A stretch of DNA of 64,000 bases, taken from the NCBI GenBank assembly GCA_016177405.1, contig JACOVG010000012.1:5385-69384 (forward strand), in the 5' to 3' direction. The DNA comes from Candidatus Omnitrophota bacterium (GTDB taxonomy: Bacteria; Omnitrophota; Gorgyraeia; 1-14-0-20-64-10). Of this stretch, positions 20,705 through 56,782 are shown one piece after another; the stretch's first letter is position 1, and every line of letters starts with the position of its first letter. A program made the translations under genes and the position numbers. The notes below the pieces were generated by a model. That model worked only from the letters and a program-made list of their open reading frames with translations, had not been told where the DNA came from and made no database searches.

Positions 20705-21328
20705 ATGAAGAATAAGTTTTGGGTGTTGGTTTTTCTTGTCCTTTTCGGCTGGGCGGCCTTGAGTTTCGCCCAGGAGACCGTCTGGCTGGACGACGCCGTG
20801 GCCCCCGGTGGTGCCACCGAAGGCAGCTGGCTCTGGGAGGATTCCGCCGAGGCCAGCGGCGGCAAGGCCCACGCGCATCCCTCGGCCAAGGGCCAGCAGT
20901 CTCACGGCATCGGCTTGGCGCCCGCCCTCCTGCCGGCCAACGGCATGATCAGCCAGACGGTCTGGCTGGACCCCCAGGACCCGCCCCGGGGGATCATGCT
21001 CAAGGTGAAAACCGAGACCGGCGAGGAAGCCGGCGTCTACTGGGAAGGGGAAGAGGAGGTCTTTGTCCCGGCCGACGAGGAGGAGGTTTTCTACTACGGC
21101 CTTCTGCCCGAGCTGGGCAAGTGGGTCACACTGGAGGTGCTGGCCGAGGATTTGGGGCTGGAGGACGAAAAGATCGCCCAGATCACCTTTGTGACCTTTG
21201 ACGGCCGGGTTTTGTGGGACAAAACGGTCCTCACCGAGGCGCCACCGGCCGAGGAGGTCGAGTTCTTCCCGGATCTTTCCCCGCCGGTTCCGCAGGAAGA
21301 GGCCCCGCTCCCGGGGAATATTGAATAG
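20705..21328 (+). CDS. Secreted hypothetical protein (signal peptide, acidic, Pro-rich C-terminus)
   Basis: Signal peptide MKNKFWVLVFLVLFGWAALSFA-QE, RBS GAGGTG upstream. No recognisable domain. Confidence 0.55.
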   Translation: MKNKFWVLVFLVLFGWAALSFAQETVWLDDAVAPGGATEGSWLWEDSAEASGGKAHAHPSAKGQQSHGIGLAPALLPANGMISQTVWLDPQDPPRGIMLKVKTETGEEAGVYWEGEEEVFVPADEEEVFYYGLLPELGKWVTLEVLAEDLGLEDEKIAQITFVTFDGRVLWDKTVLTEAPPAEEVEFFPDLSPPVPQEEAPLPGNIE

Positions 21329-21433
21329 TAGAGGGTTTCATATTTTGCAAATGTTAATGGTAATTGAGTTTTTGATAGGAGATATTGACAACCCCCGCGT
21401 CCATCAGATAAACTCCCTTACGTAGTCGATTCA

Positions 21434-21469
21434 ACACCCTGGGTCCGTCCCATAGCGGGCCCAGGGTGT
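21434..21469 (+). promoter_or_regulatory. Strong hairpin (14-bp stem with one G-U, 8-nt loop) in the AT-richer leader 50 nt upstream of the giant gene 1 start
   Basis: ACACCCTGGGTCCG-tcccatag-CGGGCCCAGGGTGT. No U-tract follows. Confidence 0.5.
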
Positions 21470-21517
21470 CCGTCTATATGGAATAGATGAGGGTTTAAAG
21501 AAGCTTTTATCTCCCCG

Positions 21518-24500
21518 ATGAAGCCAAACCTGAATCAGGAAGAAAGTCGGTGTCAGACACCGAAACCGGTGTCTGACACCGTTGTTCCTCGCCTCTTCCT
21601 TAATAAGCGACCCCTCGCCCTCCTGCTCGTCCTCACCTCCCTCACCACCTGGGCTTGCCCCGCTTTTGCCCTGCGCCCGGCCGCCCCCAAGGAATCCGGC
21701 CTCGAGGAAGAGCTCTCCCGGACCCTCACTTCAGCCCCCGCTCGCCCTGAACTTGTCGCAGGGCCCGCCTCCGGCCTGGAGGAATGGAGTGACCGTTTTC
21801 ATTTCATAATCTTTCCAGAGGGAGATCGAGACGACCGGGCAATCGCTACTGGGTTTGGTCCTGCCGATCATACCCTCTGGATCCGAATCATCCAGAGTGA
21901 CGGTTTCACCTCTCGTCTTGGGTTCCAAGTAAAGGACCCTTCAGAAAGAGCCTTCCCCGGAGAAGTTCTGGTTTTACCTGGCAGGACCATAGGGAATTTG
22001 CTCCGGAAGACGGTGCCACAAAGAGATCTTTGGCGCGCTTGGGATATAGGAGTAGATAAGCTCACCCCTTACAAGCGCCGGAGTGAACTCGCGGCTTTCC
22101 TGGCGCGTTATCCGGAATTTTGGAAGGCGGTCCAAAAACAAAAGGCGTTAGCCATCGCGGGAGGCCGCGACGAGCAGGCCCTAAGTTTCCAAAGTGGCGA
22201 TTACGCCGTCCTTTTCTATACCCCCGGGGAGGATCCGGCCCAGTGGAAAATCTTTGCAGATCTTTCGGCCAATCCGCATCGCGATGATCAGCCAGTCACC
22301 TTAACATTCTCCGTTTCGCCTCGCCACGAGTTCAATCGAAAAAGTGTTTACCTGAAGCGGCGGGGTCTCCCGTCATCTTCTGCCCAACCTTTCTCGCAAC
22401 GGCAGACTCTTACCCATCAGCGCGCCCCTAACCCCCCCTCCGGCCTGGAGGAGCTGGGGGCGAGATTGGCCGAGATTCCATTGTCGGCCGGACTGACAAA
22501 ACTTTTTCAAGGCCTGGGCCAGACCCAGCCCGACATGGTGGATCGGTTTCTGACCATCCAGGAATCGGCAAAGAAGCAATGGCTGGCGATTCTTGAGAAG
22601 CATCCCGGCGAGCTGAAGATGGCCGTGGTTATTCCCGCCTACTCGAGGGGTGTGGACCGGATTCGATCGCAGGACTCGCTGACGCTGAAGCTTCTGCAGC
22701 TTAAGAAGCTGGCCGAAGCGGATACCCGGGGCCGTGTCCGATTCGTGATCTACGTGGTGGATGACAAGCCGGAGGCAGGACTTCAGGCGGAGGTGGATCG
22801 GGCCCGGCAAGCGGCAGGGGTGACTCCAGAAGGGCCTGTTCAGGTCCGATACCTCCGATTGCAGGACGCCGTGGACAAGCGGCGTCCGGATCTCAAGGAT
22901 CTATGGTTCGACCTCGTGCCGGGGGAGCAGGGCTCCAGAAGAAGCATCAAGTGGGGCGCGGTGAGATACGGCATGAGTGTCGCGGTGGAAGAAGGAGCCC
23001 GGGTGGTCGGCATGACCGACGCCGATTCCAACCAGCAAGCCTCCGAGCTTCCCAACCTCTTCGCGCCCATTCTCTTGGAGGATCGCGCGGCGGCCGTCGG
23101 ATCCCGCTTCTTAAATGGATCTGCTTCAAACAACGATCAGATCGGCCCCCACAACTTCATTGAATATTTCCTCTATAACCCCCTGGTCAAGCTCGCCATG
23201 CCGGAGATCGCTCCCATCGAAGATCTCCAGTCGGGACTCAAGGCCTTTTCGGCGAAGTTCCTGAAGGCCGCTCTGCCCAAGATGGCTACCCACAAGTTTG
23301 CCGGAGATTCGGAACTGCTGTTTTTGATGGCTCAAGCGGGCGGCCGCATCGCCGAGGTTCCCCGGTCCGAAATCGAGGAAAGCCCCGGCCAAAGCGCGGT
23401 AAATCCCGCCAGCTACATGAGCTTTGTTGAGCAACTAAAACTGCAACTGGTCCTGCACGCCGGCGGAAGAGGATTCCCGCCCGCCGCTTCAAGGTTTGGC
23501 CGGGCGATTCAAGGTCTCAACGTTGGTTTTTGGACGGCGCAGCGCCGCCGTTTCGAGCAGGCGCTGAATGAGGTGCAGGCGGGAAGGAAAACGCATGCCG
23601 AGGTAGAAGGGTTGTTACACGACCTCCTTTTCCCCGCCACGGGCCTGGAGGAGGGGGAGGAGTTCACCGGCGAGGCCCATCCGGGCGATATCATCTGGAA
23701 TCCGAACGACCCGCAGGGGATCCGGTACGTGGTGGATCGCCTGGAGGGCGGCAGGGTCGTCGCCCACCCGGAGAAGGAGCCGAAAGCCGTCGTCCGATTT
23801 CACCCGGATGCGCTGAAGCGCGATTTCAAACGCGCCTCTCCTCCCCTCAAGACGCTGAAAGAGCGGGCCGCTCAAGTCCCAGCCGAGGTTCAGGAGCTTT
23901 CCATCCGCGGGGGGCGCCGGCTGGAAAAACAACGGGCGGCCTTTTATCGAATTCAGGATCTGATTGGGCAGGACCCAGAGGTCTTGAGGCGGCTGAAGTC
24001 TGTTCGGGTGGGGGCCAAGGTGGTTTTATACGGCGCTACCTCCGAGGAGCTTTCTCACTTCCAGGGATTGGGCCTTGAGCCCGCCGATTACGATTTTGTT
24101 TTGCTGGAGCCGGTCTCGAACCCGGGAATGGCCGGCGATTTGGTGAAGAAGGCTTGGATGAAGGCCTCGGTGGTCTTCGCGGGGATTTCGGTGATGGACT
24201 TCATCACCCTGGTCCAGCCGCCGGGCGTTGCCGGCAGCAAGGAGAGACTTCCGTTTCCCGATTGGGCCGACCCGGCAAAACCGCTCACCGTGGTGGATCA
24301 ATTTCCTGAAGGAGCCGCCGCATACCTGGCCAAGGCGGAGCGGGTGATCTCCGGAGGGCCTTCTCACAGCGGGGCCAGAGTTGCCTGGCAGACGCTGGGA
24401 GGCGGGGTCCAGGGGCTGGGTAAGCGGGGAGATGTCCGGGTTTCTCATGTCTCCCGCGTGGGCGAAGGGACAGAAGGAGAGAAGCTCCTGGTTTCTCTGC

Positions 24501-27500
24501 GGGATTTAAGAGAGTCGGGGGAAGGGGTGGAGGTCTCCGGAATGAAGCCGGCCAAAGGAAGGGTGAATGCCTCCACGCTGGTTCTCTCCCAGCCCGAGGG
24601 AAAGCGCAATTTCATCCACCAGCTGGGGGCCAGCAACGAGCTTACCCCAGCCGATGTCCCGGACTCGGCTTTCCAGGGCGAGATCTTCTCCCTTCACGGG
24701 TCGGAGCTCGCCCAGAGGTTCATGAAGGGCGGGAAAGGGGTGATCGCGCTCCTGGAAAGAGCCAAGGCAGCCGGAGCCATCACGACCTGGGACACCGTCG
24801 TGGATCCCTTTCAACATTGGGGTTCGGGGAATCTCTCCGACAGAGATTTCGAAAAACTCCTTTCCCTCATCGACGTCTTCACCCCGTCGTTTGGGGAGGC
24901 GCTTGACATCATCCGCTTGCGGGAGGGGCTTTCCGATGCCCAGGTAAAGAAGTGGGCCCCCAGCCAGGCGGCGCGCTATTTTCTGGACCGCGGTTCCGAG
25001 GCCCTCTTCCTGAAGCTGGACGAGAAGGGGTCGCTCATCTGGACCACCCAGCGTTCCATCTTTGGCAGGCCGGCCCATTTCAGGATGCCGGTTCTCTGGG
25101 GCTTGAAGAAGAGGGACGGCACCGGAACCGGCGACGCCTACTCCGCCGCGGTCATCGTCGGCATCCTCATGGACTGGCCGGTGGAAAAGATTGCCCGGGT
25201 GGCCACCGCCGCCGGCGGGCTCGTTCTGGAAAATTACGGCGGGACCCTGGGGGATTACACCTTCCCCGACGTCCTCAAAGCGGCCGAGCGTCTTGAGGGC
25301 CAGATCGACGTGAAGATGGCTCTGGATTACCCGACTCTCTCCCTTTGGGAGGTGAGGCCTGGCGGGACCTCCGCGGGCTTTCCAGAGGGGCTCCTTCCGG
25401 AGGCCAAACCGGAATTGGATACCCTGCTTCTTCTGGCGGTGAGGCCTGATGAGGCGATCGCGGTGGCCGAAGGCCAGCCGGACGACCATCTTGCTAGAGG
25501 TCCTGTCGACAGGTTAAGGGTGCGCCTGAATGGGCGAACCGGCCCTCTTTCGCCGTCTGAAGAAGCGCTGGCCGAAGCCGTCCAGCGAGAGCCCCGCTTG
25601 GGTTCCACCCGCTCCACCCAGGAGCAGAGCGATCTTTTGACCTACATCGCAAGCGCTCTCCTCATTCCCCCCGCCATCGATGACCCCTCCGCTGCCGGCT
25701 TGGAGGAAAAGAATCGCAAGCCGGAGGCTGCCTCGGCGGTCTGGGACGGTTTGACCGTTGACCAGGCAGCGGAAATGCTTTTTGCTTACCGCCTGCGGAA
25801 GTCTTTGTACGCTGGTCGGAAGATCTTCCCCGTGGCCGGCAGTAAATCTTTTTTGGACACGATGTTCAACGGAGAGATCCGCAGCTGGCTGCAGACGGTA
25901 GCGAATGGTCATCCAAACGAATCGCTGAAACTTGTCGATGATGGCACGACCGTTTACGCCAGCTCTTCCGCCACGGGCCTGGAGGAGGGGGGCCAGGAGA
26001 AGGTTCAGAACGAGGTTCAGGAGGCCCTCTTGAGATTCCAGGGGCTCTTGTCCCACGCGACCAGCAAGGATTTGCACGTTTTGAGCCCCCAGACGCTCAA
26101 ACGGCTCCCGGATCTCCAAGGCTTAGGCGGCTTTGGTTTATTCCTGTTGCCTGACTCGAAGTTGCCGTTAGATCAGCTTCCGGGAGCAATAAAGAGGCGG
26201 TTGGGCAGAAGGCCCAAGGCCAATTTCTACGGCGCCGGAGCGGAAACCACTATCCTGGGGCTTGCCGCCCCGGGAGCGGGCGGTAGGTCTGGCTGGCTCA
26301 ATCTGGTTGTTGCAGGCAATGGGACGCTCGAGGAGTTCCTAGCAGGAACCCTGCTTCCCGGCTTGGGCATTCCCGACAAGCACTGGAAGGGCGAGGATGA
26401 TCTCGCGCAGATTGCGCTCGACCTGTGGACGCTGGCTCCTGCGCGAGCTGCCGGGCTGGAGGAAAAGCCCCAAACGGAGGACCAAGAGGACGAGTGGGGC
26501 GGGGTGGTTCGGCTGAATCTCTATGCCGAGCCGGATAGGGACGACCGGATTGTTATTTATAATCTCGGAGGCAGCCGCGCCGTCTGGGTCAAGTGGCTGA
26601 AAACAGAAAATCCCTCCAGGATCAGCGTAGGTTTCCTCGCGGCCGATGCCGGAGGAAGGCATTTGCCGGGCGATGTCGTCGTGCTAAGCGGGGAAACCGT
26701 CCAGCGCGCCCTGGATGAAGCCCAGAGCCCTCAATGGATCTGGCCGGCTTCCAATCGAATCCCGGATCTTCGCGACCCGGGAATCCGCGTCGCCATTCGG
26801 AAGGCAATGGAAAAGCGCCTGTCCGAAGCGAAGGCAAGTTTCCTCCAAGTCCCTCCTGCTCCTCAAGAGATGGAATTCAGGGATGGAGGCTACGCCGTTG
26901 TCTTTGACACCGCCGGAGATGACCCCTCAAGCTGGCGCCCCGTGGCCGACCTTTCCGTTCTTCCGAAAAACCAGAGGAAAATAGAGCTCGTTTTATCGGC
27001 TTTAGGTGAGGTGAACCTCGACAGAAAGAGCCAGAGCCAATTTCACCAGGAAAACGACCAACCCGCCGTTGATCCCTGGGGCTCGGTTTCCTCGCCTCTC
27101 GTGAGCGGCGACGCCTGGAGGAGGAAAGTCCAAAGCCAGCTCGATGATTACGTGACCGTGGTGCAAGCCCCGCCTCAAGGGCACGAGGAAAGGGATCCGG
27201 ATTTTCCCTCCAAAGAATTGCTCGAGGGCGTTCATTCTATAGAGGGAAGCTTGAAGGATGGAAAGGGGCCGGCGGTTGCCGAGGTCATCCGAAAAGTCCG
27301 CGGGAACTTAAGGGCGCTGGAAAGAGGAGGCCGGATTTCTCCTGTGGATTTCGAAGCCCTGGATGATCTTCTGGAGACAGCCGTGATCGAAGCCGAGCGT
27401 CCCCGCCGCCTTCCCGCCGGCCCTTCGGCTGTCCCCCCTCGGCCCCTCGATGAGAAAGAGGCCCCCCCAAGTGAATTCGCGGAGGGCATCCCCCTCGGCC

Positions 27501-30500
27501 CCGCGGCCGAGCCCCCCTCCGGCCTGGAGGAGACGGTCCAGGAGAAGTTCGGCAAGGCGCCGTTTGCCGTGGGAGTGCGTCTGCACGGTAGCACCATTGC
27601 CGCCGCTTTGGTCAATCGGAAGGGGGAGGTAGAGACCACCATCCTTGAGCCGACGCAGTGGAGAAAGCTGCCGGAGATCCTTGAGCTTTTGGGAAATCCG
27701 CCCCCCGACCGAGTGAATAAAGCGATCCTGGAACTGATTCCTCGCCCCGACCATATCCTCTCCTCGGAACAGCGTGACTTGGCCAGCCGGATTGGCGACC
27801 GGATTACCGAAGAAGTCATCCAGCACATCTTGGCCCTCGTCCGCAGTTCAGGACTGCCGAGGGAGAAGTTCAAATACACCTTCATCTCGTTCGCTGGACC
27901 TGTGGATCCCGTTTCAGGCCGGGCCGGAGTGCCTTTTGCCGCGCCCAACATACCCGGTTTTGAGAACTATCCCCTGGCCGAGAAGGTGGCCCATGGGATC
28001 GAGAAGGAGCTGGGGATGAAGGTTCGCGTGGATGTGAGAAATGACGCCCCCTCCGGCAGGATGGGGGAGACCAGCCCCAGCGGGACCATACCCGGCGCCA
28101 AGGGGGTGATCTCCATGATCTGGGGCACCGGGATCAACGCCGACTCGGATACCGTGCCCCTGTTTGAGGTGGGCCACGCCATCGTGGGTCGAATCGAAGA
28201 AGACGGCTTGGCCCACTACGAGTTTCGTGGAGCGGCAGAGAATCGGCCAGCCCTGGAACCGGATGAGTTTGAGGTGGAACAGCAATTAGGCGGCGAGGTT
28301 CTGGCGGCAGTCTTTAGGCAATACGGTTTCAAAGATGGCGGTGATCTCACACAGCAGGCTGCTCCGGACAATTCTGACCAAGCCAAGCGAGATTCGGCCA
28401 GGTCTATCATCGAGGACGTCGGCAAGGACATGGGCAGAGCCATCGCTTCCCTTCTGGCGCACTGCCGCAAGGAGCACCAGTTTGTTCCAACCCGTTTTGT
28501 TCTTACCGCCGGCGTGGCGGAGAAATTCGGCAAGGGGTTGGTGGATTCGAAGGGCAGAGACCTTCTGACCGGCGCCGTCCAGGATGGAGCTTCCCAAGAG
28601 CTTGTGGGTCGTTTCAATGTTTCTAAAGCGGATGCCGAAACGATGGTCAAGGCCGTTATCCGCTCCAGCATGGATGACCGCCGGGAGTTTGCCGCGGCAG
28701 CCAGCGCTCTTCCCTTCGCCGCGGCGGGATTTCCTGCCGATGGATTGTCGGTTCTCCCTGTATCGGAAACATCCCTGGAATTCTTGAAGAAGCTTAATCC
28801 TGATACCCCGGCCGAATTTGTTCAACACCAGCTTCTGATGGATGGCCCTCAAAGAGTGGCCGCGGTTCTGGAAAAAGGCAAGGAGACGCAGGCCGTGGGG
28901 ATGCTTGTGGCAGGCAGACTGTTCTGGGGGACCTGGGAAGATTTTAAGAAAGCGGGACTCACGGATGAGCAATCAGCCTCTGCCTTCCTTGACTATCTCC
29001 GGAATGGGATCCATGAGGCGCAGGTTACAGGTTTTAGGAATCTTTTCATCGAGAGGGTGATTCTTCGAAGAAGCCCCAAAAACGGCAGCGTCCATTTACA
29101 GCTTTCTGACGGACCGGTCCAGCCAGACGATGAAGTCACCTCGATGGTTCTCCTTCACGACAAAAAACATAATCTGGAAAACTTGGCCCACAGCCGTTCC
29201 AAGACCCCACTGCCGACCGGAAAAGCCGCCAAACCGCCCAAGTCCGGGCTGGAGGAGAAGCCGCCGGTGGAAAAGCGGGTCACCGGTAAAACAAAGTTGG
29301 CGGCGGGTGACCTGCTTGTTCGCAGGCAGCTAGGTGAGCCCATCCGCGGCTATCAGATCACGAAGATCGGCTGGCCGCAGTGGTGGCGTGGAATAACGGT
29401 GAAGCAAACAAGCATAGAAGCAACGCCGCCTCCTCTGCCTCGCGTGACGCGAAGAATCCTGAAGAGCGATCCAACGTGGACCCATCTTCCGCTGGCTGGC
29501 CTTCGGGAGGAGGATCTTGTTCGGCTTGGCTTGGAGACCTTCTTGAGCAAAATCACCCCAGGGGAGAAAGCGGCTTGGAAGAAAGAAGGCCGCGAAGCGG
29601 CGGCCAAGCAGAAGCAACATAAAGAAGAAATCCGCGCCGCGCTGGGCCCGTACGCCGCGCCGCTTCCCACGCGAACCAAGCCGAAGCCACCCTTCCAGGT
29701 GACGCAAGGGGCGCGGGAGTTCGAGATTCTCAAGACGCAGGTTGAGAAGGAAGGGCATCTTGTAGCGGTGGAGCCAACCTCCTACTATCCCGCTGCCGAC
29801 GGGGGGATTTCCAGTGAGAATGTCGGGAGCATGGTGACCAGCCTTCTTCGCAAGGCGCGCATGGGGGAGAGCGAACTTAAACACATCGCCTTCTTTCTCC
29901 CGGGCACTCCGAAGGAAGAGCGGACTCCAAGGAATGTTTTTGTGGTTTCGCTGGATCAGCCCATCTTTCAAGGGAAAGACGCGCCGCAGACCCTGAAAAC
30001 GGCGCTTGATGCTGTCCTGAAATATCTGCTTTCCCAGGATTCCAAGGAAACACCTACGGAAAGAGTCCAGGTCCCCTTGGCGAGATGGAAGCCGCCGGGC
30101 GCCTCTGCCCAAGACCCCCATGAGCTGGTTCCGGTGATCCTGCCCGTTCCTCCGCGCCCCGATCCCACCGCAGGCCCGCCACAGAACCGGCGGGCAGGCC
30201 TGGAGGAGGCGGCGGGGGCGTTCCTGGCGGGGGTTGTGGAGCAGACGCGGGCCGAGCAGGACCCTTACGCCCCGCTTCTGGGCACCGATGAGGCCCGGGA
30301 GGCCGCGGCGCGGTATCTCACCAGTCAGTGGACCGCTCCGGAGAGGCGGATCGACCCTTCCCAGCTCTTTATAACTCCTGGCGGCGCCGGCGCCCTGGAG
30401 CTTTTAATCCGAATGGCGGCCGATGTGACCGACGCCCCCCTCAAGGCGCTTCGAGATCCGAATGGGCGCCAATGGATTTGGCTGTCGAAAGCGCTTGAAG

Positions 30501-32872
30501 AACGCTACGGAAAACCGGCCCGGAAATACCTTCAAACCAAGGCCTTCGAAGATTCAACTCTTGGGAGCTTCATGATAAGTCTTTATCTCGCGAACCCACA
30601 GCGCGGAACCCCCAAGATCATCTTGCTTAAGATCTCTGATTTTCCGCGGGCCGACGATAAGGAGTGGCTCGATTTTTTGAAGTACGCTTCCGCCAATCAA
30701 ATCCTGGTTGTCTTCGAAGATTCTGAAGGTCCTACCCCAACGATGGGGAAGCTGATGCGGTGGGTCCAGGAGAACCCTCTTTATAAGCGGACAACCCTCT
30801 TTATGACCGATTTCGGGAAGCGTCTTGATCTGGACGACTACCCGTTGGGGGCGCTGGTTGGCTTTAACAACGCGCTCGTTACCCCTTACCAGACCGCGGC
30901 CGGCGGCTCGATCGCGGCCCCCTCCCAGGCGGTCCAGAAAGGGATCTCCCGCTGGCTTGCCCTCAAGGTCTCTCCCGGGGCAGGGGATGGCTGGCCGCAG
31001 GCTGCCCTTTCCTTACCGGATGTGCCGCAGAACAAAGGGTTCCTGGCGCCTCCTTATCTCGAGGGGAAACCGGACCCGACCCTTGCCTTGAGCTCCAGGG
31101 CCCTCTGGAAGGAGCGAGGCCTGCCGAGATTTCTGCCCGGCGTGAGCGATGAAAACGTTCTCTCAAGGGCGATTCCCCTGCACGTGGGGGCCCCCTCGGT
31201 GCCGCGGCCTAAATGGGCCAGGCAGGCGGTAGAGGAGGCCCTGAAGAGCAACCGCTGGAAGAGCTGGGAAGAGCTGGAGCAAGCGGTCGTTGAGGCAATG
31301 ATCGGCTATATTCGGCGCACGTATGGCGTCGAATATCTTGTGGATGATGTGGCGACAGGCCTCTCCGGCTCCAAGACCGCCCTGCAGGAGTTCCTCCTCG
31401 CGCTGGAGCATGTTGAGAAGAAGCCGGTTTCGGCGGCTCTCCCCAATCCTCACTACGTGGGATACGGTTCCTCACTCCGGGCGGTCATCCCGGATAAGCA
31501 GATCCATCGGTTTGGAACCCAGCGCGAGAACGACTTTGTCCCAACGATTGACGATATCCAGGCAGCGCTGGATGAGATGAAACAGAGCTCTCCGGAGGCG
31601 ACGAGGGTCCTTATCCTCACCAGCCCCGGCAACCCCACCGGCACCGTGATTTCGCAGGAGCTCCTGGAAAAATTGGACGCCTTGCTTCAGGAGAAGGGGT
31701 ATGAGGACGTTCACGTGGTTCTGGATGTCGCCTACGGACAGCTCCTCTTTGAGGGTAAGCAGCTTCAGCTGAACAACCTGTCCGACAGCGTCCTTACGCG
31801 GGTGGCTCTCCTGATGACCCAATCGAAGGAGATCCTTCAGCCCGGGGGCCGGCTGGGCACGTTGGCCATCGCCAATCCGGCGATTGTCGGCCGGATGCTG
31901 GACCAGCGGGTGTTAAAGGCCGACCGGGCCGCGATGGTAGCGCAGGCGGTTGTCTACGGCCAGGAACATGTTGAGGAATTTAACGCCTTTATCAGCAAGC
32001 ATGTGGAGCACCTGAAGCGAAACGCTAAACTGCTGACCCATATCCTCCGAAAGCACGGCGTGGATTTTATCCCGCCCCAAGGGGCCTTTTATCTTCTATT
32101 CAAGAAGGAGCGCTTCCTTGAGCTCGACGCGGAATTCACCCCCTGGGACCTGGGGCTCACCTATGTGGACGGCAACGCCTTCTATGCCCCGGAAGACGAA
32201 TGGTGGCGCATCGCTTTCTCCGGCCCCACCGAGCAGGTAGAGAAGGCGGCCCGCCGCCTGGATGAGTGGCTTACGGCGCATTCTCTCGCCGCCACGGGCC
32301 TGGAGGAGGGGGCCGCGGCGGCGGCTGCCCCCACGGTGCCGGAGGCGCTGGCGAGTCTCAATGGGCTTGAGAAGTTTTGGCAACTGCCGGATATTCCAGC
32401 GGCAGAGGGCTTCCCGGAACTTTCCGCCCGGCCCATCCTCATCGATACCCACGCCGATCCACGGCTGGGCCAACTCGCCCAGGCGTTGAGCATCATGATG
32501 GCCAAGGACCCTTCGGCCCCCGAGGTGGACTTTCTCCTGGTAGCCCGCTGGGAGGAAGTCTCCCCATTGCTGGAGGGGTTGAGTCAAATTAACCGCGAGG
32601 CCGCCGAGGAGTTCCTCAAGCCCCGGATCATCGCCTACGGCGGTTCGGAGGGGAGCCGAGAGAATGCTCGACGCGAGGCCATCGTCCGGTTGGCCAGGCG
32701 GTTCGGGCTCGGCGACGATCCGGAGAAATTGATACGGTCTGGGTCCCTTAAGGTGATCGGCGTCCTTACGCCAGATCTGGCGCTTGAGCTAAAGGATTTC
32801 CTTGGAGAGGTTGGATTACACTTTACGCAGGACGCCTACGATCGTTTGAAGGCGCTTCTGGAAGCGGCATAA
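21518..32872 (+). CDS. Giant multidomain protein 1 (3784 aa). N-terminal signal-peptide-like segment, then GT2 glycosyltransferase, pfkB-family sugar kinase, ROK-family sugar kinase and class I/II PLP aminotransferase domains, plus long uncharacterised regions. Carries 11 [SAT]GLEE motifs.
   Basis: GT2: VIPAYSRG...VGMTDADSNQ (DXD). pfkB: GGKGVIALLERAKAAGA...DGTGTGDAYSAAV. ROK: FISFAGPVDPVSGRAGVPFAAPNIPGFENYPL...VRVDVRNDAPSGRMGE. Aminotransferase: TSPGNPTGTV...LLMTQSKEILQPGGRLG. Uninterrupted ORF. Confidence 0.75.
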   Translation: MKPNLNQEESRCQTPKPVSDTVVPRLFLNKRPLALLLVLTSLTTWACPAFALRPAAPKESGLEEELSRTLTSAPARPELVAGPASGLEEWSDRFHFIIFPEGDRDDRAIATGFGPADHTLWIRIIQSDGFTSRLGFQVKDPSERAFPGEVLVLPGRTIGNLLRKTVPQRDLWRAWDIGVDKLTPYKRRSELAAFLARYPEFWKAVQKQKALAIAGGRDEQALSFQSGDYAVLFYTPGEDPAQWKIFADLSANPHRDDQPVTLTFSVSPRHEFNRKSVYLKRRGLPSSSAQPFSQRQTLTHQRAPNPPSGLEELGARLAEIPLSAGLTKLFQGLGQTQPDMVDRFLTIQESAKKQWLAILEKHPGELKMAVVIPAYSRGVDRIRSQDSLTLKLLQLKKLAEADTRGRVRFVIYVVDDKPEAGLQAEVDRARQAAGVTPEGPVQVRYLRLQDAVDKRRPDLKDLWFDLVPGEQGSRRSIKWGAVRYGMSVAVEEGARVVGMTDADSNQQASELPNLFAPILLEDRAAAVGSRFLNGSASNNDQIGPHNFIEYFLYNPLVKLAMPEIAPIEDLQSGLKAFSAKFLKAALPKMATHKFAGDSELLFLMAQAGGRIAEVPRSEIEESPGQSAVNPASYMSFVEQLKLQLVLHAGGRGFPPAASRFGRAIQGLNVGFWTAQRRRFEQALNEVQAGRKTHAEVEGLLHDLLFPATGLEEGEEFTGEAHPGDIIWNPNDPQGIRYVVDRLEGGRVVAHPEKEPKAVVRFHPDALKRDFKRASPPLKTLKERAAQVPAEVQELSIRGGRRLEKQRAAFYRIQDLIGQDPEVLRRLKSVRVGAKVVLYGATSEELSHFQGLGLEPADYDFVLLEPVSNPGMAGDLVKKAWMKASVVFAGISVMDFITLVQPPGVAGSKERLPFPDWADPAKPLTVVDQFPEGAAAYLAKAERVISGGPSHSGARVAWQTLGGGVQGLGKRGDVRVSHVSRVGEGTEGEKLLVSLRDLRESGEGVEVSGMKPAKGRVNASTLVLSQPEGKRNFIHQLGASNELTPADVPDSAFQGEIFSLHGSELAQRFMKGGKGVIALLERAKAAGAITTWDTVVDPFQHWGSGNLSDRDFEKLLSLIDVFTPSFGEALDIIRLREGLSDAQVKKWAPSQAARYFLDRGSEALFLKLDEKGSLIWTTQRSIFGRPAHFRMPVLWGLKKRDGTGTGDAYSAAVIVGILMDWPVEKIARVATAAGGLVLENYGGTLGDYTFPDVLKAAERLEGQIDVKMALDYPTLSLWEVRPGGTSAGFPEGLLPEAKPELDTLLLLAVRPDEAIAVAEGQPDDHLARGPVDRLRVRLNGRTGPLSPSEEALAEAVQREPRLGSTRSTQEQSDLLTYIASALLIPPAIDDPSAAGLEEKNRKPEAASAVWDGLTVDQAAEMLFAYRLRKSLYAGRKIFPVAGSKSFLDTMFNGEIRSWLQTVANGHPNESLKLVDDGTTVYASSSATGLEEGGQEKVQNEVQEALLRFQGLLSHATSKDLHVLSPQTLKRLPDLQGLGGFGLFLLPDSKLPLDQLPGAIKRRLGRRPKANFYGAGAETTILGLAAPGAGGRSGWLNLVVAGNGTLEEFLAGTLLPGLGIPDKHWKGEDDLAQIALDLWTLAPARAAGLEEKPQTEDQEDEWGGVVRLNLYAEPDRDDRIVIYNLGGSRAVWVKWLKTENPSRISVGFLAADAGGRHLPGDVVVLSGETVQRALDEAQSPQWIWPASNRIPDLRDPGIRVAIRKAMEKRLSEAKASFLQVPPAPQEMEFRDGGYAVVFDTAGDDPSSWRPVADLSVLPKNQRKIELVLSALGEVNLDRKSQSQFHQENDQPAVDPWGSVSSPLVSGDAWRRKVQSQLDDYVTVVQAPPQGHEERDPDFPSKELLEGVHSIEGSLKDGKGPAVAEVIRKVRGNLRALERGGRISPVDFEALDDLLETAVIEAERPRRLPAGPSAVPPRPLDEKEAPPSEFAEGIPLGPAAEPPSGLEETVQEKFGKAPFAVGVRLHGSTIAAALVNRKGEVETTILEPTQWRKLPEILELLGNPPPDRVNKAILELIPRPDHILSSEQRDLASRIGDRITEEVIQHILALVRSSGLPREKFKYTFISFAGPVDPVSGRAGVPFAAPNIPGFENYPLAEKVAHGIEKELGMKVRVDVRNDAPSGRMGETSPSGTIPGAKGVISMIWGTGINADSDTVPLFEVGHAIVGRIEEDGLAHYEFRGAAENRPALEPDEFEVEQQLGGEVLAAVFRQYGFKDGGDLTQQAAPDNSDQAKRDSARSIIEDVGKDMGRAIASLLAHCRKEHQFVPTRFVLTAGVAEKFGKGLVDSKGRDLLTGAVQDGASQELVGRFNVSKADAETMVKAVIRSSMDDRREFAAAASALPFAAAGFPADGLSVLPVSETSLEFLKKLNPDTPAEFVQHQLLMDGPQRVAAVLEKGKETQAVGMLVAGRLFWGTWEDFKKAGLTDEQSASAFLDYLRNGIHEAQVTGFRNLFIERVILRRSPKNGSVHLQLSDGPVQPDDEVTSMVLLHDKKHNLENLAHSRSKTPLPTGKAAKPPKSGLEEKPPVEKRVTGKTKLAAGDLLVRRQLGEPIRGYQITKIGWPQWWRGITVKQTSIEATPPPLPRVTRRILKSDPTWTHLPLAGLREEDLVRLGLETFLSKITPGEKAAWKKEGREAAAKQKQHKEEIRAALGPYAAPLPTRTKPKPPFQVTQGAREFEILKTQVEKEGHLVAVEPTSYYPAADGGISSENVGSMVTSLLRKARMGESELKHIAFFLPGTPKEERTPRNVFVVSLDQPIFQGKDAPQTLKTALDAVLKYLLSQDSKETPTERVQVPLARWKPPGASAQDPHELVPVILPVPPRPDPTAGPPQNRRAGLEEAAGAFLAGVVEQTRAEQDPYAPLLGTDEAREAAARYLTSQWTAPERRIDPSQLFITPGGAGALELLIRMAADVTDAPLKALRDPNGRQWIWLSKALEERYGKPARKYLQTKAFEDSTLGSFMISLYLANPQRGTPKIILLKISDFPRADDKEWLDFLKYASANQILVVFEDSEGPTPTMGKLMRWVQENPLYKRTTLFMTDFGKRLDLDDYPLGALVGFNNALVTPYQTAAGGSIAAPSQAVQKGISRWLALKVSPGAGDGWPQAALSLPDVPQNKGFLAPPYLEGKPDPTLALSSRALWKERGLPRFLPGVSDENVLSRAIPLHVGAPSVPRPKWARQAVEEALKSNRWKSWEELEQAVVEAMIGYIRRTYGVEYLVDDVATGLSGSKTALQEFLLALEHVEKKPVSAALPNPHYVGYGSSLRAVIPDKQIHRFGTQRENDFVPTIDDIQAALDEMKQSSPEATRVLILTSPGNPTGTVISQELLEKLDALLQEKGYEDVHVVLDVAYGQLLFEGKQLQLNNLSDSVLTRVALLMTQSKEILQPGGRLGTLAIANPAIVGRMLDQRVLKADRAAMVAQAVVYGQEHVEEFNAFISKHVEHLKRNAKLLTHILRKHGVDFIPPQGAFYLLFKKERFLELDAEFTPWDLGLTYVDGNAFYAPEDEWWRIAFSGPTEQVEKAARRLDEWLTAHSLAATGLEEGAAAAAAPTVPEALASLNGLEKFWQLPDIPAAEGFPELSARPILIDTHADPRLGQLAQALSIMMAKDPSAPEVDFLLVARWEEVSPLLEGLSQINREAAEEFLKPRIIAYGGSEGSRENARREAIVRLARRFGLGDDPEKLIRSGSLKVIGVLTPDLALELKDFLGEVGLHFTQDAYDRLKALLEAA
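21548..21581. promoter_or_regulatory. Perfect 15-bp inverted repeat CGGTGTCAGACACCG-aaac-CGGTGTCTGACACCG, 30 nt inside the giant gene 1 ORF. Each arm is itself a near-palindrome.
   Basis: Read directly from the sequence. No in-frame alternative start lies downstream before the hydrophobic segment, so it sits in coding or 5'-proximal sequence. Confidence 0.6.
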
Positions 32873-32907
32873 TCAAAAGAAAAAACAATACAGGGAGAAA
32901 CCTAAAG

Positions 32908-35900
32908 ATGCGTTCGAAACTGCTGAAAATTCTCGTGGCGCGGGTTGCGCTCTTCACGTCCGTTATCACCTGGGCGGCGCCCGGGTATGCCCTGCGCCAG
33001 ACCGGGCTGGAGGAGTCTCCCAAGGAGCGGAAGCGGCTTGAAGTCGCCCTCCTGGGCACCGGCAACCCCGGCCAGGACCTCAAGAACCTCGGCGCCGCCG
33101 CCAACCGCCTCGCCACGGACCTTGGGTTTCTCCCTGCAGCCGGATTAGAGGAAGGTTCTTTAGGTCTCGATGATCTGATAAAGCAAGCCGGCGCTGGCTC
33201 CGAGGATGAGCGGAGCAGGGCCATCCAGGCCCTGGGAAGATTCTTTTCAGGGATTACGGTGGATCGGAAAAGATTGGCCTCGTTTGATGGCGGTCGCAGG
33301 GTCCTCCCGGATCTCACCCCGGTGACAAGCATTGGAGCGCTGGGAGTGGTGTTGAGCAACATGGTGGGTTCCGGTGACAAGATTGGATGCGACAGCGCTT
33401 CCTCCTCCAGGATGAATCCGGCGGTGCAGGTGGTATTCCGTGTGGCGGGGCACAACTGGTGGAACAGGGCAGGTGAAGGGAAGAGGGAAGGTGTTCCCGA
33501 CGAGGCGCAGATTCCGCCGATGGAGAAGCCGCTCGTCTTCTCCGCCGGCTGGGTCACTCTCTATACCGCCAACGACCCTGTGGATGGAACCACCCGGACC
33601 TCCAAGGGTCAGGATGGGGGGGTGACCCTTTTTATGGTGACCCCGGATTTTGGCAGGAGGATCCCGGACGAGCTGCGGCTTGAGAACGTCATCTACGCGG
33701 GTCAAAAAGCCGACTTCAGCCTGAAGCGCCAAAAGTTTGACGAGATCGTGAGGCGGATCGCGGCGTCGAATAGAAAATCACCTTCCGATTACGAGGTCTG
33801 GGTGCTCAACCGTCCCCATGGCCAGGAGATCATTGATCTGGCAAGGAAAGCGGGAGCCAAGGTGCGCCTGTATCAGGATGGGACGGTTCAGCCCTCCCTC
33901 TACCTGGCCGCTTTTCCGGAGAGAAACATCATCGTGGCGGGCCGCGTCGGAGCAACCGAAGGCAAGATGGTCGCGGCCCCCCTGCGCAACGTCCATTACC
34001 CCGGCGGCGGAAGGGTTTGGATGAAGGCCCGGATCATCTCGGAAAACTCCGCGTATGAGGTGGCGGAGAAGCGCCAAGGCGGCATCGTTTATTACGAGCC
34101 GAGGCTTGACCCGGACGGCAAGAAGGTCGCCGCGAAGAGTCTGACCAACGGAAACAAGTTGAGTCTCAAGGACAAAGAAGCTCTCAAAGAGGCCGGCTAC
34201 GCGGAGGAAGAGGTTGCCCGGATTGAGGATGGAAATTGGGAGCTGGAACTGGAGGATTTGGCTCCGGCGGCGGGAGACCTGTCCCTTTCCTACATCACCG
34301 AGCCGATGACCGGCTTGGATGGCCAGCCCCTCTTTGATTGGGAAGCGGAAATACACGGTGTTCAGAAGGCCGAAGGGGTGGTCAGTCATACGTTGGATTT
34401 CGCCGCGGATGGCATCTGGCTGGTCACGCATCGCTATCCGGACGCGGGGCTGGGGAGGATTGCCGCTCAACTTCATGAGCAGGAGCGGGTGGTTAACCTC
34501 CTGCGGAAGATCGTATTCGAAGATCCAAGCCATAATCTCCGGCAGGCCGCCCAAGCGGCCTTGAGAGAGTATCTGCCGCACGCGCTTGGTCTGGACTTCC
34601 AGCGGCGGGCGGGGCTGGCGATCGCGGGTGTGGCGGCGGGGCTGGAGGAGGCCAAGCCGGTCATCGGCTACCAGCCGAAACTGACACTGGAGCAAAACCT
34701 CAAGGCCCAGGCCCTTTTTGGGATGGGAACCGGTTCAGGCGTTACCAAGGTAGATGTGAAATACCAGATTAGAAACACGGCAGGAGATCCGGCCGCCTTC
34801 AGCCGGCTCTTTGGCGAACTCCTGGCCTTAAGCCAGGGCGACATGAATAAGCTTGCAAGGATTTTTGAAGAGGCGGTTCAGGCCGACTACGTGAGCGAGG
34901 AGCAGCTCGCCGCCGCCCTGCAGCGCCTGGCCGCCGATCCCGGGGTCCCCTACAACCAGCCGCCGGTTTCTTACTACAACCCGGCCCGCTACGTCTACGC
35001 CCGCCTGCGGAACATGCGGGGCGGCCGGATGACCGGATGGGTCGACGCGGTCCTGGAACCGGTGGCGGTTCGTGTTCGCAGACACGCCTCCGGCAAGGAT
35101 CTCTCCGATGTCCGGCAGAAGGCCCAGGTGGTTCAGGCCCTGCAAAAAAGCTGGGGGAGCGGTCGTCAAGAAGCGGGGTCGAACCTGCCCACAGGGCCTT
35201 TCCGGTACGAGATCTTTTGGGATTCCTTGGTGGAAAAGGACGGGGAATATTACCTCACGCTGGAACTGCTTCTGGACGGAGGGAAGGATTACGCCCAAGG
35301 GGTCGTTCTGGAGCTTCAGGTGGTAATTCCGGCAGAAGGGGAACTCCAGCAGTACCAGAACCCCTACACCTTGGAAATTCCCCCGGACAGAAGGGCCCCC
35401 TTCTCCTACGGACTCTTGGATTCCCTCCACTTTGTCAACACCCGCTTTCCGGAGTGGAGGCCCACGGCCCAACGGGACATCTACGATGCCCGGATGAAGG
35501 CGATGCAGGAAACAGGCGTGAAGCGCCAGATCCTGCGGCCGTCGGTTCGCCAGGGGAACAACCCCAGGTTCTTCGAGCCCTTCTTCCGGGCCTATTTGGC
35601 CGGGCGGGTTCCCTTGATCTACCACATCGTGCACACCCGCTCGGAGCGGGAGTACGGCAACCAGGGCGGGGTTCCCTCCATCGGGAATCTGGCCTCCGCC
35701 ATTGTCCGGCGAGGCGGTTTGGGAGTCACCGCTTCCTGGCTTATCGAAAATCCTAAAGAGGCCGAGCCGCTGGTCGGGCAAGAGCTGGTTTTTAGCTACG
35801 AGCTGGACCACCACCGGATTGACAATGTGAAGGATGCGGCTGGATTCGCGGCAGATTTTGAGTATCTGGTGAAGGCCTACCAGGAGGCGCTCGTCACAGG

Positions 35901-38900
35901 GTGGGTTTCCGCCAACCTGCAGGATGAGACCAAGCTGGAGAACGTTGAGAACCGCCAGAGCTGGCTTAGGTCCGGCGTCAACGCGGCCCAGACGAACGGC
36001 ATGGTTGACGCAACCATTTTTCAGCGGCTGGAGGAAGTCTACAGCGACGCTCCGGTGGCACCCGGCCTGCCCAGCTCCCTTGGCTTTCATTGGGTGCGCA
36101 ACCGGATCCTCCGCCACCTGGTCGAGACGGTTGGGGTCCCGGCAGGCGGGGTTCCGTATGACCGCTGGTACATCGAGCCGGACTATGCCCTGGACGGCAA
36201 GCCGCACACGGTGGAGGAGATGGCCTATCTTTCCTTCATGTCCTGGATGAGCGCCCAGGCGCACGGCTTTCCCTTGGGGCCGGTTGTCCCCAGCTACGGG
36301 AATGTCCACGGCGCCTCGGCGGGCAATCCGTCTCTTGCCCTGGCCGGTGTCCACCAGTACGCGGCCCAGGCGGCGACCCTTTACGGGCAGCCCTTGCCGC
36401 CAGAGCTTCTGGCGATATCCCGGAAGACCCCCCGCGGCTATTCCGACCTGGTCACTTCGGTTGTCGTGAATTTCAAGGATCAAGCGTTGGCGCAGGAGAT
36501 CGTGAAACTCTTTCCTGCCGACGGCCAGCGGACGGCCGCGGAAGAAGAGAGGATGAGGAATTTCGCGCTGGAGCAGTTAAGAAACATTCCAGCCGGCGTG
36601 CTCGGCACGCTGAAACAGGCGGAGCTGGCCATCCTCGAAGAGGTAGGGTTGGCCAAGAAAGAAGCGCGAGATCCCAGGCCGCTTGAGGAGTCGAGCCCAG
36701 AGGTGGCCAGGCGCCTGAAGGAGATTACCACCCAGATGGACGGGAAGATCCAGGCGATGGATCTTAGGCGGCGGGCGGCCATCACCACCCACGCGGCCAG
36801 CGGCCTAAGCGCCGCGCAGTTGAAGGCGGCGCGCGAGGCCGGCATCTGGATTGCCAACAAATCCACCGAGCCTCAAAACATCGTCCTGCGAGTTTTGTCC
36901 CTCTTTGACAAGATCTCCAGCGATGAAGTCGCCGGTTTGGACGCGCTGGCTAAACTCCCTGGAGCTGTCGAGATTTGGAAGGCCCATACCCACGGGATGC
37001 CGGCCCACCAGCGCGAGGAGCTGGCGGGCCGTATGGCCGCGCTGTACCAACAGATGTACGACGGGGTGGTGGAGCGGGCGGTCAAAGCGGCCAAAACTCC
37101 CGAAGAAGCACGGAAAATCCAGCTGGTGACCAAAAGCTACGGCCGGGTCTTTCCCTGGTTCTGGGATCCGCAGGCCGGCTGGTCCATGAATGAGCCGGGC
37201 TTAAGTGACTGGACCAGCGAGTTCGATTGGCTGACCAGCACCCACGGGCGGTACATGTTCGCCCTTCGGAATCCGGATGGGACGCTTCGCTTCCCGAACG
37301 CCCTCACCTGGGGGCTCGATCCGCTGGTGGTGGAGATCTCCCAGCACCTGATTGAGCAGACGATACCCTTCTACCATCGGCCCGATGTCATGAACGCCGA
37401 GGGGGCCGCCCAGGAGTACCGCGATTTCATGGCCGCCAAAACCACCGCCGGTGCGCCGGCCGAAGCCGACCATTGGACCGACAAGCCCCAAGGGCCGAAA
37501 TTGGACGACGCCGGGCTGGAGGAGAGCAACATCGCGAAGGCGAAGGGGCTGGGGAGTATCTTCTGCTTCGACTTTCTTGAGAACATCTCCGATGGCTTGA
37601 TCGAGGCCGCGATCCAGGGGGGCGCCACGGAGTTCACCATGAACCCCTATTCGACAGGGAATTACATCCAGCACCTCCTGACCCTTGCCACCGACGCGGG
37701 CCGCCAAAAGGCCGAGGCCCTCCAGGGGATACAGACTACGGAGCAATGGACAGGGTTCAAGAAGGAGGTGACCGATCTGGTCAAGGCAAAGGATAAGATA
37801 GGGCTGGCGCTGAAGGCGGCGATAGAGCCCTCACCGGATGTGAAGCCGGAGACCGAGCTGGCTCTAGCCAAGGCAGTTGCCCAGGCGATGCTGGCCGAGG
37901 CCGGTGTCGTGAAAGGGATGATGGAGCAATTGTCCCGGGAAGGGAAAAGCGGCGAAGAGGCGTACTGGGTCATCACCAAGTATTTTGCCGGAAAGATTGC
38001 CAGGCGGCTCAAGCCGATCTTTGATGGCTCCCAAGAGAAAACCGGCTACGTCTCCATCGAGGTGGATCCGCGGATCGAGCGGGAGGATTTTGCCGAAAGC
38101 CGCATGGAACCGGGAGCGGCGCGAGATAGAACCACTCGGCATCTTTGGATGGCGGACCGGATGCAGACAGAAACCAGGGATCTGGCCGGGATTGCCTCCA
38201 ACATCCTGGTCAAGGTTCCTGACACCGAGGCAGGGATCGCCACTGTTGGCGTGGTGGATGCCAACTACAATGTGACCCTGGCTTTTGTCGACGATGACGG
38301 TCGGGATGCCATTGCCGCTTTCGAGAAGAGGGGCGATTTGGCCCACCGCCTGCGCGTATCGCCCTTCGCCAGCCGGAACGCCGTCTACTTTGAGGAGTTC
38401 TGGGGCGATCTGATGAAGGAAGCCGACGGCTCCCAGGTGATTGACGGCCACGCCTGCACCATCGCCAATCTTTTCGATGTCTTTGAGGCACTCGGCAGCT
38501 ACGCGGACGGCGCCATCTGGTCCAGTCTCGGCATGAAGGTGAAGGGGGACCCGGGCGAGCTGTACGCCAGGTACGTGGTCGGTGTCGGGATCTTGAACGC
38601 CCCGCCGGAGACGGCCCGCGATTTCAACCGGGCCTCCTTTGAAATCCGGCGCTGGCTGGGTGAGAAAAGTTTGGTGGAGATCCTGACCGATTATTTCCAA
38701 GCGGTGAAAGAGGGCAAGGTCCCCTCGGCGACAGCGAAGTTCCCGGCCTTGATGGACGGTTCGATCTCTCCAGAGGATCTGGCGCGGCAGGCCGTTGGCA
38801 AATGGCACGCCTTGAGGAGTCGGCCGGTGTACCAGGGCCGCTTGACTCAAGTTCTTGAGAGGGTTAAGCAGTTGGAGCTGGCGGCCCAAAAGCCGCGTCC

Positions 38901-56774: not shown

Positions 56775-56782
56775 TGCCGGGC

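Follow-up and report, generated by a model that had tools for sequence, protein, structure and literature searches.

A terminator-like palindromic doublet of a dispersed repeat family is probably read as early codons of a giant secreted protein in an Omnitrophota bacterium

Translating ribosomes mask intragenic terminators, and in some bacteria the hairpins just past many genes have arms built from one fixed short sequence. The inverted DNA uptake sequence pairs of Neisseria and Haemophilus and the TRIT motif of Mycobacterium tuberculosis are of this kind; both motifs are lineage-specific, and the uptake sequences are tied to transformation. Repetitive extragenic palindromic (REP) sequences carry a conserved flanking tetranucleotide, GTAG. 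REP doublets that form hairpins are known as REPINs, as described for the REP/BIME sequences of E. coli and the REPINs of Pseudomonas fluorescens (PMC3116915). One account of REPIN-RAYT systems describes them as mostly vertically inherited (10.1101/2022.05.22.493013). Here we analyze a 64-kb stretch of DNA from a Candidatus Omnitrophota bacterium (contig JACOVG010000012.1; hereafter, the window), in which a perfect 15-bp inverted repeat lies at 21548–21581, near the start of an open reading frame (ORF) that we call giant gene 1. The same double palindrome recurs across unrelated genomes, mostly at gene ends. In our view the window hairpin is probably a stray copy that resembles a terminator and ended up within the first codons of the gene, and not a purpose-built switch.

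The repeat has the form CGGTGTCAGACACCG-AAAC-CGGTGTCTGACACCG. It spans +31 to +64 counted from the ATG at 21518, which corresponds to codons 11–22 of giant gene 1, and it comprises the following parts.

21539–21547, forward strand: A-rich 5' flank GAAGAAAGT, in agreement with the A-rich 5' flank of the family described below
21548–21562, forward strand: 5' arm CGGTGTCAGACACCG, holding 13-mer unit 1 GGTGTCAGACACC at 21549–21561; codons R11-C-Q-T-P15
21563–21566, forward strand: 4-nt loop AAAC, part of codons K16 and P17
21567–21581, forward strand: 3' arm CGGTGTCTGACACCG, holding 13-mer unit 2 GGTGTCTGACACC at 21568–21580; codons P17-V-S-D-T21
21582–21589, forward strand: T-rich 3' tail TTGTTCCT (5/8 T), in agreement with the family's T-rich 3' flank and completing a terminator pattern with the stem

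The initial annotation of this DNA had reported a perfect inverted repeat with near-palindromic arms that would form a very stable RNA hairpin 30 nt past the start codon, and our results bear this out. The two 15-nt arms are perfectly complementary, with 10 GC pairs, and each is a 7+1+7 palindrome in its own right. The arms are therefore also a direct repeat with a period of 19 nt, in which the central base (A versus T) is the sole mismatch. At the core of each arm is one 13-bp palindrome, GGTGTC(A/T)GACACC. The isolated hairpin folded at −29.3 kcal/mol as RNA and −19.3 kcal/mol as DNA, while a single arm alone did no better than −6.3 kcal/mol. Folding of the surrounding region (21500–21620) gave −45.7 kcal/mol with z = −6.9, and none of 200 shuffled sequences equaled it. 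With its tail, the hairpin fits the terminator pattern on both strands.

A direct scan of the window found this to be its longest perfect stem-loop, the runner-up having 11 bp, and the maxima in 20 shuffled controls ranged from 0 to 12 bp. The region is 100% identical in six contigs that were assembled independently, each from its own sequencing run (SRR12113385, 390, 401, 418, 421 and 432), which excludes an assembly artefact. Every public contig with the giant-gene locus is likewise 100% identical, with zero population variation. The window had no Rfam match at gathering thresholds. A permissive Rfam scan returned only weak matches (E ≥ 0.14, far under gathering scores). Nine of these were to microRNA-precursor models and fell on the hairpin, and another two fell elsewhere in the stretch that was scanned.

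We searched public species-representative genomes, metagenome contigs and viral contigs for the pattern GGTGTCWGACACC-N(2–8)-GGTGTCWGACACC. The doublet was present in at least 119 species-representative genome stretches and at least 120 metagenome stretches (at least 239 together), against a chance expectation of about 0.01 estimated from the information content of the pattern. There were no matches in viral contigs and no match to the element in plasmids; phages gave only partial matches at chance level (E = 0.06), inside mycobacteriophage holin genes. A text search of the papers in a searchable library did not find the 13-mer, and its shorter substrings turned up only in unrelated primers.

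Most of the genome matches listed were metagenome-assembled genomes (MAGs) of Thermoleophilia/Gaiellales. Further carriers among them were isolates of Bordetella petrii, a Bordetella genomospecies and Achromobacter, together with MAGs of Hyphomicrobium, Gammaproteobacteria, Ilumatobacter, Vicinamibacterales, Aminicenantes, Treponema and Planctomycetia. Actinomycetota, Acidobacteriota, Alpha-, Beta- and Gammaproteobacteria and other groups thus carry the 13-bp doublet. Single genomes of Thermoleophilia/Gaiellaceae, Hyphomicrobium, Gammaproteobacteria and Bordetella petrii hold at least 4–6 loci each, and metagenome Ga0182736 holds at least 15, with UUCG-type and similar tetraloops. None of the matched loci listed comes from the source organism, and the nearest among them share about 50% amino-acid identity with it in housekeeping proteins.

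Two variants were seen beside the main form. The loci in Ga0182736 (L130, L140–L142, L146, L151, L160, L170, L201, L208, L211, L219, L229, L232 and L236) include 14-bp stems with loops CGAA, TTCG, CGCA or TGCG and conserved CA…TG flanks, with up to six copies in 12 kb. A doublet in a Planctomycetia MAG (L110, 1673–1704) has a compensated variant core on both arms, GGGGTCAGACCCC and GGGGTCTGACCCC, which suggests a wider superfamily with a common GTC-W-GAC centre.

These matches bear on two proposals in the initial annotation: that other copies of the palindrome in the genome might define a regulon, and that its occurrence at many coding sites genome-wide, as a generic repeat, would refute the regulatory reading. 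No further copy was found in about 69 kb of the source genome, where the 13-mer core has its single occurrence within the 64-kb window. Many copies were found in unrelated public genomes, mostly at gene ends. This comes close to the refutation named in the initial annotation, although the generic occurrence was seen across public genomes and not within the source genome. That single copy in the window is the sole point in favor of a chance palindrome or an artefact. We regard this explanation as practically ruled out by the shuffled controls, which never exceeded 12 bp, by the six identical assemblies and by the exact match of both arms to the family core.

To describe the family, we used 285 unique doublets from the listed genome and metagenome matches. 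The central bases of the two units were complementary, making a perfect hairpin, in 223 of them (78%, p = 2e-22). Doublets with 8-nt spacers are the exception, being dominated by same-orientation tandem arrays whose period is 21 nt. Stems extended outward past the 13-mer at about chance level, with no extension at all in 158 of the 223 hairpin-type copies, which marks the 13-mer as the conserved unit. Among diverged copies, 16 substitutions were compensated between arms and 2 within an arm only; most changes were uncompensated decay.

Placement was assessed for the 221 hairpin-type doublets with a classified position (complementary centres, 2–7 nt spacers). Only 12% lay inside ORFs, compared with 69% of random segments (p = 2e-69), so 88% are extragenic. 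Neighboring genes were convergent in 61 cases and divergent in 12 (p = 5e-9). Between convergent genes the element was a median of 7 nt from the nearest stop. Between co-directional genes it followed the upstream stop by a median of 26 nt and preceded the next start by at least 103 nt. The Bordetella copies are placed likewise, between rph and a prpD-like gene, beside rho and beside citrate synthase. The flanks of the family are enriched in A on the 5' side (up to 0.49) and in T on the 3' side (up to 0.54), against a background of 0.16.

Some copies occur in tandem clusters that alternate with a linker, at a period of 56 nt in L007 and 71 nt in an Achromobacter locus (L048). In a syntenic soil-metagenome relative (L121), a doublet occupies a 77-nt spacer between cdsA and dxr, while the window orthologues abut; this is insertion-like behavior of the element. 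Same-orientation 13-mer tandem arrays with periods of 16–21 nt were seen at L025 (1487–1604), L019 (4817–4892), L036 (6304–6356) and L178 (420–464). The array in L025, from Vicinamibacterales, forms an in-frame part of the MOFRL domain encoded by an enzyme gene and is read as VSDTRxx heptads, so units can be absorbed into coding sequence.

The initial annotation had offered an operator for a dimeric transcription factor as an alternative, and had expected strong control over the two-gene unit from either. On this reading each 13-bp palindrome would be a dimer site, and the tandem pair, lying at about +125 to +160 of the giant-gene transcript, would block or repress transcription as a roadblock or a repressor site. 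The unit is indeed a perfect 6-1-6 palindrome of typical dimer-site size, and the chance-level stem extension makes it a discrete conserved block. Same-orientation arrays with a 21-nt period also exist, and the one in L019, four units at 21-nt spacing, ends 26 nt upstream of a TetR-family gene, which is the only observation favoring protein binding. However, the family is concentrated past stop codons and between convergent genes, not between divergent genes or in 5' regions, and the complementary centres and between-arm compensation indicate that a hairpin is maintained, not a duplex palindrome. The 19-bp centre-to-centre spacing would not correspond to a whole number of helical turns. Pfam and NCBIfam searches found no gene for a DNA-binding regulator or transcription factor among the genes of the window, and the adjacent unannotated gene, orf207, encodes a secreted protein. 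The 5' ends of the two paralogous giant genes have no comparable hairpin. The distribution of sites and the presence of a regulator are defining tests of an operator, and this reading fails both. We consider it very improbable, and we infer that the exact sequence of the hairpin reflects its family origin and not a gene-specific operator.

How much of the element is translated depends on where giant gene 1 starts. The features that bear on this are given below.

21518–21520, forward strand: ATG, the likeliest start of giant gene 1; the first start past an in-frame TAA at 21497, and the one used by the gene call on public contigs
21569–21571, forward strand: in-frame GTG within the 3' arm, the sole alternative start to ATG 21518; buried in the stem and without a Shine-Dalgarno sequence
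21518–21670, forward strand: predicted signal peptide of 51 aa (ending …LALLLVLTSLTTWACPAFA, followed by LRP); residues 1–21 are an extension not present in giants 2 and 3, and residues 11–21 are encoded by the repeat

Between the hairpin and the hydrophobic signal-peptide core, the reading frame contains no ATG, GTG or TTG. The element must therefore be transcribed, and its 3' part, at the least, must be translated. The initial annotation had stated that no alternative in-frame start exists between the repeat and the signal peptide; this is correct for the interval after the hairpin, but it overlooks GTG 21569 inside the 3' arm. If translation began at that GTG, the upstream ten codons would be leader, and the hairpin would hide the start and keep the gene silent until the stem melted. 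The n-region would then be 14 aa, nearer to the short n-regions of giants 2 and 3, and codons 1–10 are AT-rich like the leader (GC 0.40, within the lowest 3% of the gene's windows). Against this, the GTG sits inside a −29 kcal/mol stem. Every 13-mer carries a GTG, which is expected to fall in frame about one third of the time, and ORF calling chose such GTGs artefactually at other loci. Several other genes here also start AT-rich, which weakens the hint that codons 1–10 are a recruited leader. Neither ATG 21518 nor GTG 21569 has a Shine-Dalgarno sequence, and usage of such sequences across the window is mixed. Since the GTG is buried and intrinsic to the 13-mer, and since the public call is on the ATG, we took ATG 21518 as the start and consider a mis-called start very doubtful. 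Translation most likely begins there and reads through the element, whose 3' unit appears in the protein as …PVSDTV…, in the way that the L025 units are read. Giant 1 thereby has about 21 extra N-terminal residues, MKPNLNQEESRCQTPKPVSDT, relative to giants 2 and 3.

Upstream of the ATG, the leader contains two further features.

21385–21414, forward strand: promoter-like site TTGACA-18-TAAACT, upstream of the hairpin; 10/12 matches, a prediction only
21434–21469, forward strand: second strong leader hairpin, with 14-bp arms that are 93% complementary, between the promoter-like site and the ATG and found only at this locus

The entire leader is unusually structured (−91.8 kcal/mol, z = −8.9). 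The second hairpin has no copy at other loci, and we rejected it as a member of the 13-mer family; it could serve to terminate the upstream operon or could belong to the leader of the giant genes. A 21-nt direct repeat, ATATKGAATAGWWGAGGGTTT, occurs at 21318–21338 and 21476–21496 (18/21 identical, unique in the window). The two copies flank a 158-nt AT-rich segment containing the promoter-like site and the second hairpin, and the upstream gene has its stop codon overlapped by the first copy. The pair may have arisen by duplication, or it may be what is left by the insertion of a segment that carried a promoter.

This arrangement raises the possibility that the element, whatever its origin, has been co-opted as a selected attenuator. 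An intrinsic terminator 30 nt into the ORF would then gate an 18-kb operon and be read through only upon prompt initiation at ATG 21518, making giant-gene transcription dependent on translation. The perfect stem and U-rich tail fit the terminator pattern, the element lies downstream of both the sole promoter-like site and the start codon, and it is the sole copy in about 69 kb. The strong structure of the whole leader also speaks for this reading. Judging from the coordinates, the geometry would fit as well, since a coupled ribosome could cover the +31 to +45 arm before the 3' arm appears. However, the sequence is identical to that of a generic family found at gene ends elsewhere, and giants 2 and 3, with the same signal-peptide layout, have no such hairpin. 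The N-terminus of giant 1 also offers no orthologues for a comparison of conservation: its first 400 aa had no homologue among 5.8 billion proteins, and no related locus was found in genome or metagenome contigs. On balance, we think a selected attenuator is unlikely, although it deserves to be kept in mind.

We therefore favor, with a probability of roughly 65%, the reading that the inverted repeat belongs to a dispersed, REP/REPIN-like kind of palindromic element, is read through as codons 11–22 and acts as a passive brake on the mRNA, with no gene-specific operator involved. The identity of the element, its family, the placement of that family and the translated position of this copy are shown by the data, whereas the brake is inferred. 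In many lineages the doublet sits just past gene ends and resembles a bidirectional intrinsic terminator, with an A-rich flank, a GC-rich stem, a short loop and a T-rich flank. The copy at the extreme 5' end of giant gene 1 is at least partly translated, and most likely it lengthens the signal peptide at its N-terminus. On the nascent RNA, the −29 kcal/mol hairpin and its U-rich tail could end part of the transcripts early, slow early elongation, or both. A ribosome that started at the ATG and followed closely behind the polymerase would already occupy the 5' arm (+31 to +45) by the time the 3' arm emerged, and because of this termination would be suppressed and the brake relieved. Damping of expression by the hairpin, through premature termination or slow translation, is plausible.

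Several observations weigh against the favored reading. A single copy of the element was seen in about 69 kb of its source genome, several copies per genome being known from other lineages, and the housekeeping proteins of the source organism have only about 50% identity with those of the element-rich lineages. Both arms match the family core at 26 of 26 bases, which fits a recent arrival but equally fits selection to keep the copy; the perfect core and the single copy are compatible with either. The position is also atypical for the family. The window copy follows the upstream stop at a distance of 220 nt and lies 30 nt into the next ORF, away from the 3'-end placement of the terminator class, and it is downstream of a promoter-like site within the first codons, where a co-opted regulator would sit. 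Finally, excising exactly 34 bp leaves the upstream ATG out of frame with the signal peptide. Since removal of neither 34 nor 32 bp restores a frame with that ATG, we dropped the idea of a clean recent insertion into an intact ORF.

A bolder version of the favored reading treats the GGTGTC(A/T)GACACC doublets as undescribed, cross-phylum, mobile bidirectional mini-terminators ("mini-REPINs" with a 13-bp unit). The window copy would then have been exapted twice: in coding, where it extends the N-terminus of an orphan giant secreted protein, and in control, where it serves as the translation-gated attenuator of an 18-kb operon. We offer this combination tentatively and regard it as rather improbable.

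The genes around the element provide context for these readings. The giant genes are located as follows.

21518–32872, forward strand: giant gene 1, 3784 aa, with PfkB-like and aminotransferase-like domains
32908–39597: giant gene 2, 2229 aa, with GlpX-like and transaldolase-like domains
46950–56774: third giant gene, secreted, with no Pfam match

The unit formed by giant genes 1 and 2 extends from 21518 to 39597, or 18.1 kb, and not over the 29 kb given for a two-gene unit in the initial annotation. All three giant proteins have a signal peptide ending A-x-A, followed by LR…GLEE. Giants 1 and 2 carry domains resembling cytoplasmic metabolic enzymes (PfkB kinase, class I/II aminotransferase, GlpX fructose-1,6-bisphosphatase and transaldolase) behind their signal peptides, and they have in common a C-terminal module of about 200 aa with 36% identity. 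The motif [S/T/A]GLEE occurs 11, 5 and 3 times in giants 1, 2 and 3 (19 copies in 9287 aa), compared with 2 copies in the 8996 aa of 20 other window proteins. Its first copy is always shortly beyond the predicted signal-peptide cleavage site. If the chains are polyprotein-like, the motif could mark their linkers or their processing sites. A preprint on giant genes says nothing of hairpins or of the GLEE motif.

Upstream of giant gene 1 are purA, an H+-pyrophosphatase gene and, directly adjacent, orf207, whose secreted product has 207 aa. The window as a whole is a run of housekeeping genes with giant genes interspersed, and its gene content, which includes lipopolysaccharide genes, indicates a diderm. 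The giant-gene regions have a GC content of about 0.60, compared with about 0.65 in their surroundings. In the syntenic relative L121 (5390–5853), the orthologues of ispG and proS adjoin, while their window counterparts lie at 45193–46857 and 56774–58078. This adjacency makes giant gene 3 a lineage-specific insertion between housekeeping genes. We speculate, from the lower GC content of the giant-gene regions and the lack of giant 3 in L121, that the element may have arrived with foreign DNA.

The answer to the earlier finding largely deflates it: a real and strong hairpin turns out to be a generic element, though one that sits in an unusual place. The striking palindrome is no evidence for a dedicated regulator of the giant genes, which removes a tempting over-interpretation, and a regulon search built on it would mostly return gene ends. 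For genome annotators, the locus illustrates how a gene can take up a dispersed hairpin repeat into its translated start, with a longer signal peptide and probably a structural brake as the outcome. What remains of interest is this capture into a coding start, together with an undescribed cross-phylum family of 13-bp doublets that may merit a short study.

Among known systems, leader attenuators and masked intragenic terminators offer a possible functional parallel, in that the window hairpin is early in a translated region and a closely following ribosome would prevent its formation. Unlike leader attenuators, the element lacks a leader peptide of its own, an alternative anti-terminator pairing and any sensing of a metabolite or tRNA; the N-terminus of the gene itself takes the place of the "leader". 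Bidirectional intrinsic terminators share with the family a GC-rich stem, a 3–4 nt loop, A-rich 5' and T-rich 3' flanks, and a position a few to tens of nucleotides past stops with enrichment between convergent genes. The window copy fits their pattern on both strands, but it is a terminator by pattern only and lies 30 nt inside an ORF, not past one. Ordinary terminators also have no common stem sequence across genes or phyla, whereas this family has one. In that respect it is closer to the uptake-sequence pairs and the TRIT motif, in which a fixed short sequence likewise supplies hairpin arms downstream of genes, although the 13-mer crosses phyla and is not known to have a role in transformation.

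The resemblance to REP sequences and REPINs is broader. Both consist of short palindromic units that occur mostly as inverted doublets forming a hairpin, both are strongly extragenic with several to many copies per genome, and both form tandem clusters alternating with a linker. In both, a copy can be present in one genome and absent from the syntenic site of a relative. The differences are that the unit here is only 13 bp and a perfect palindrome, that no conserved flanking tetranucleotide was seen in the family, and that its core is common to different phyla, in contrast to mostly vertical inheritance. The units are 2–7 nt apart, whereas the invariant 16-mers of GI REPINs are about 71 bp apart (PMC3116915). 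The window copy differs further in being the one copy seen in its source genome and in lying inside an ORF. Taken together, the family appears to be best filed with REP/REPIN-type repeats and sequence-conserved terminator hairpins, a likeness of sequence and placement.

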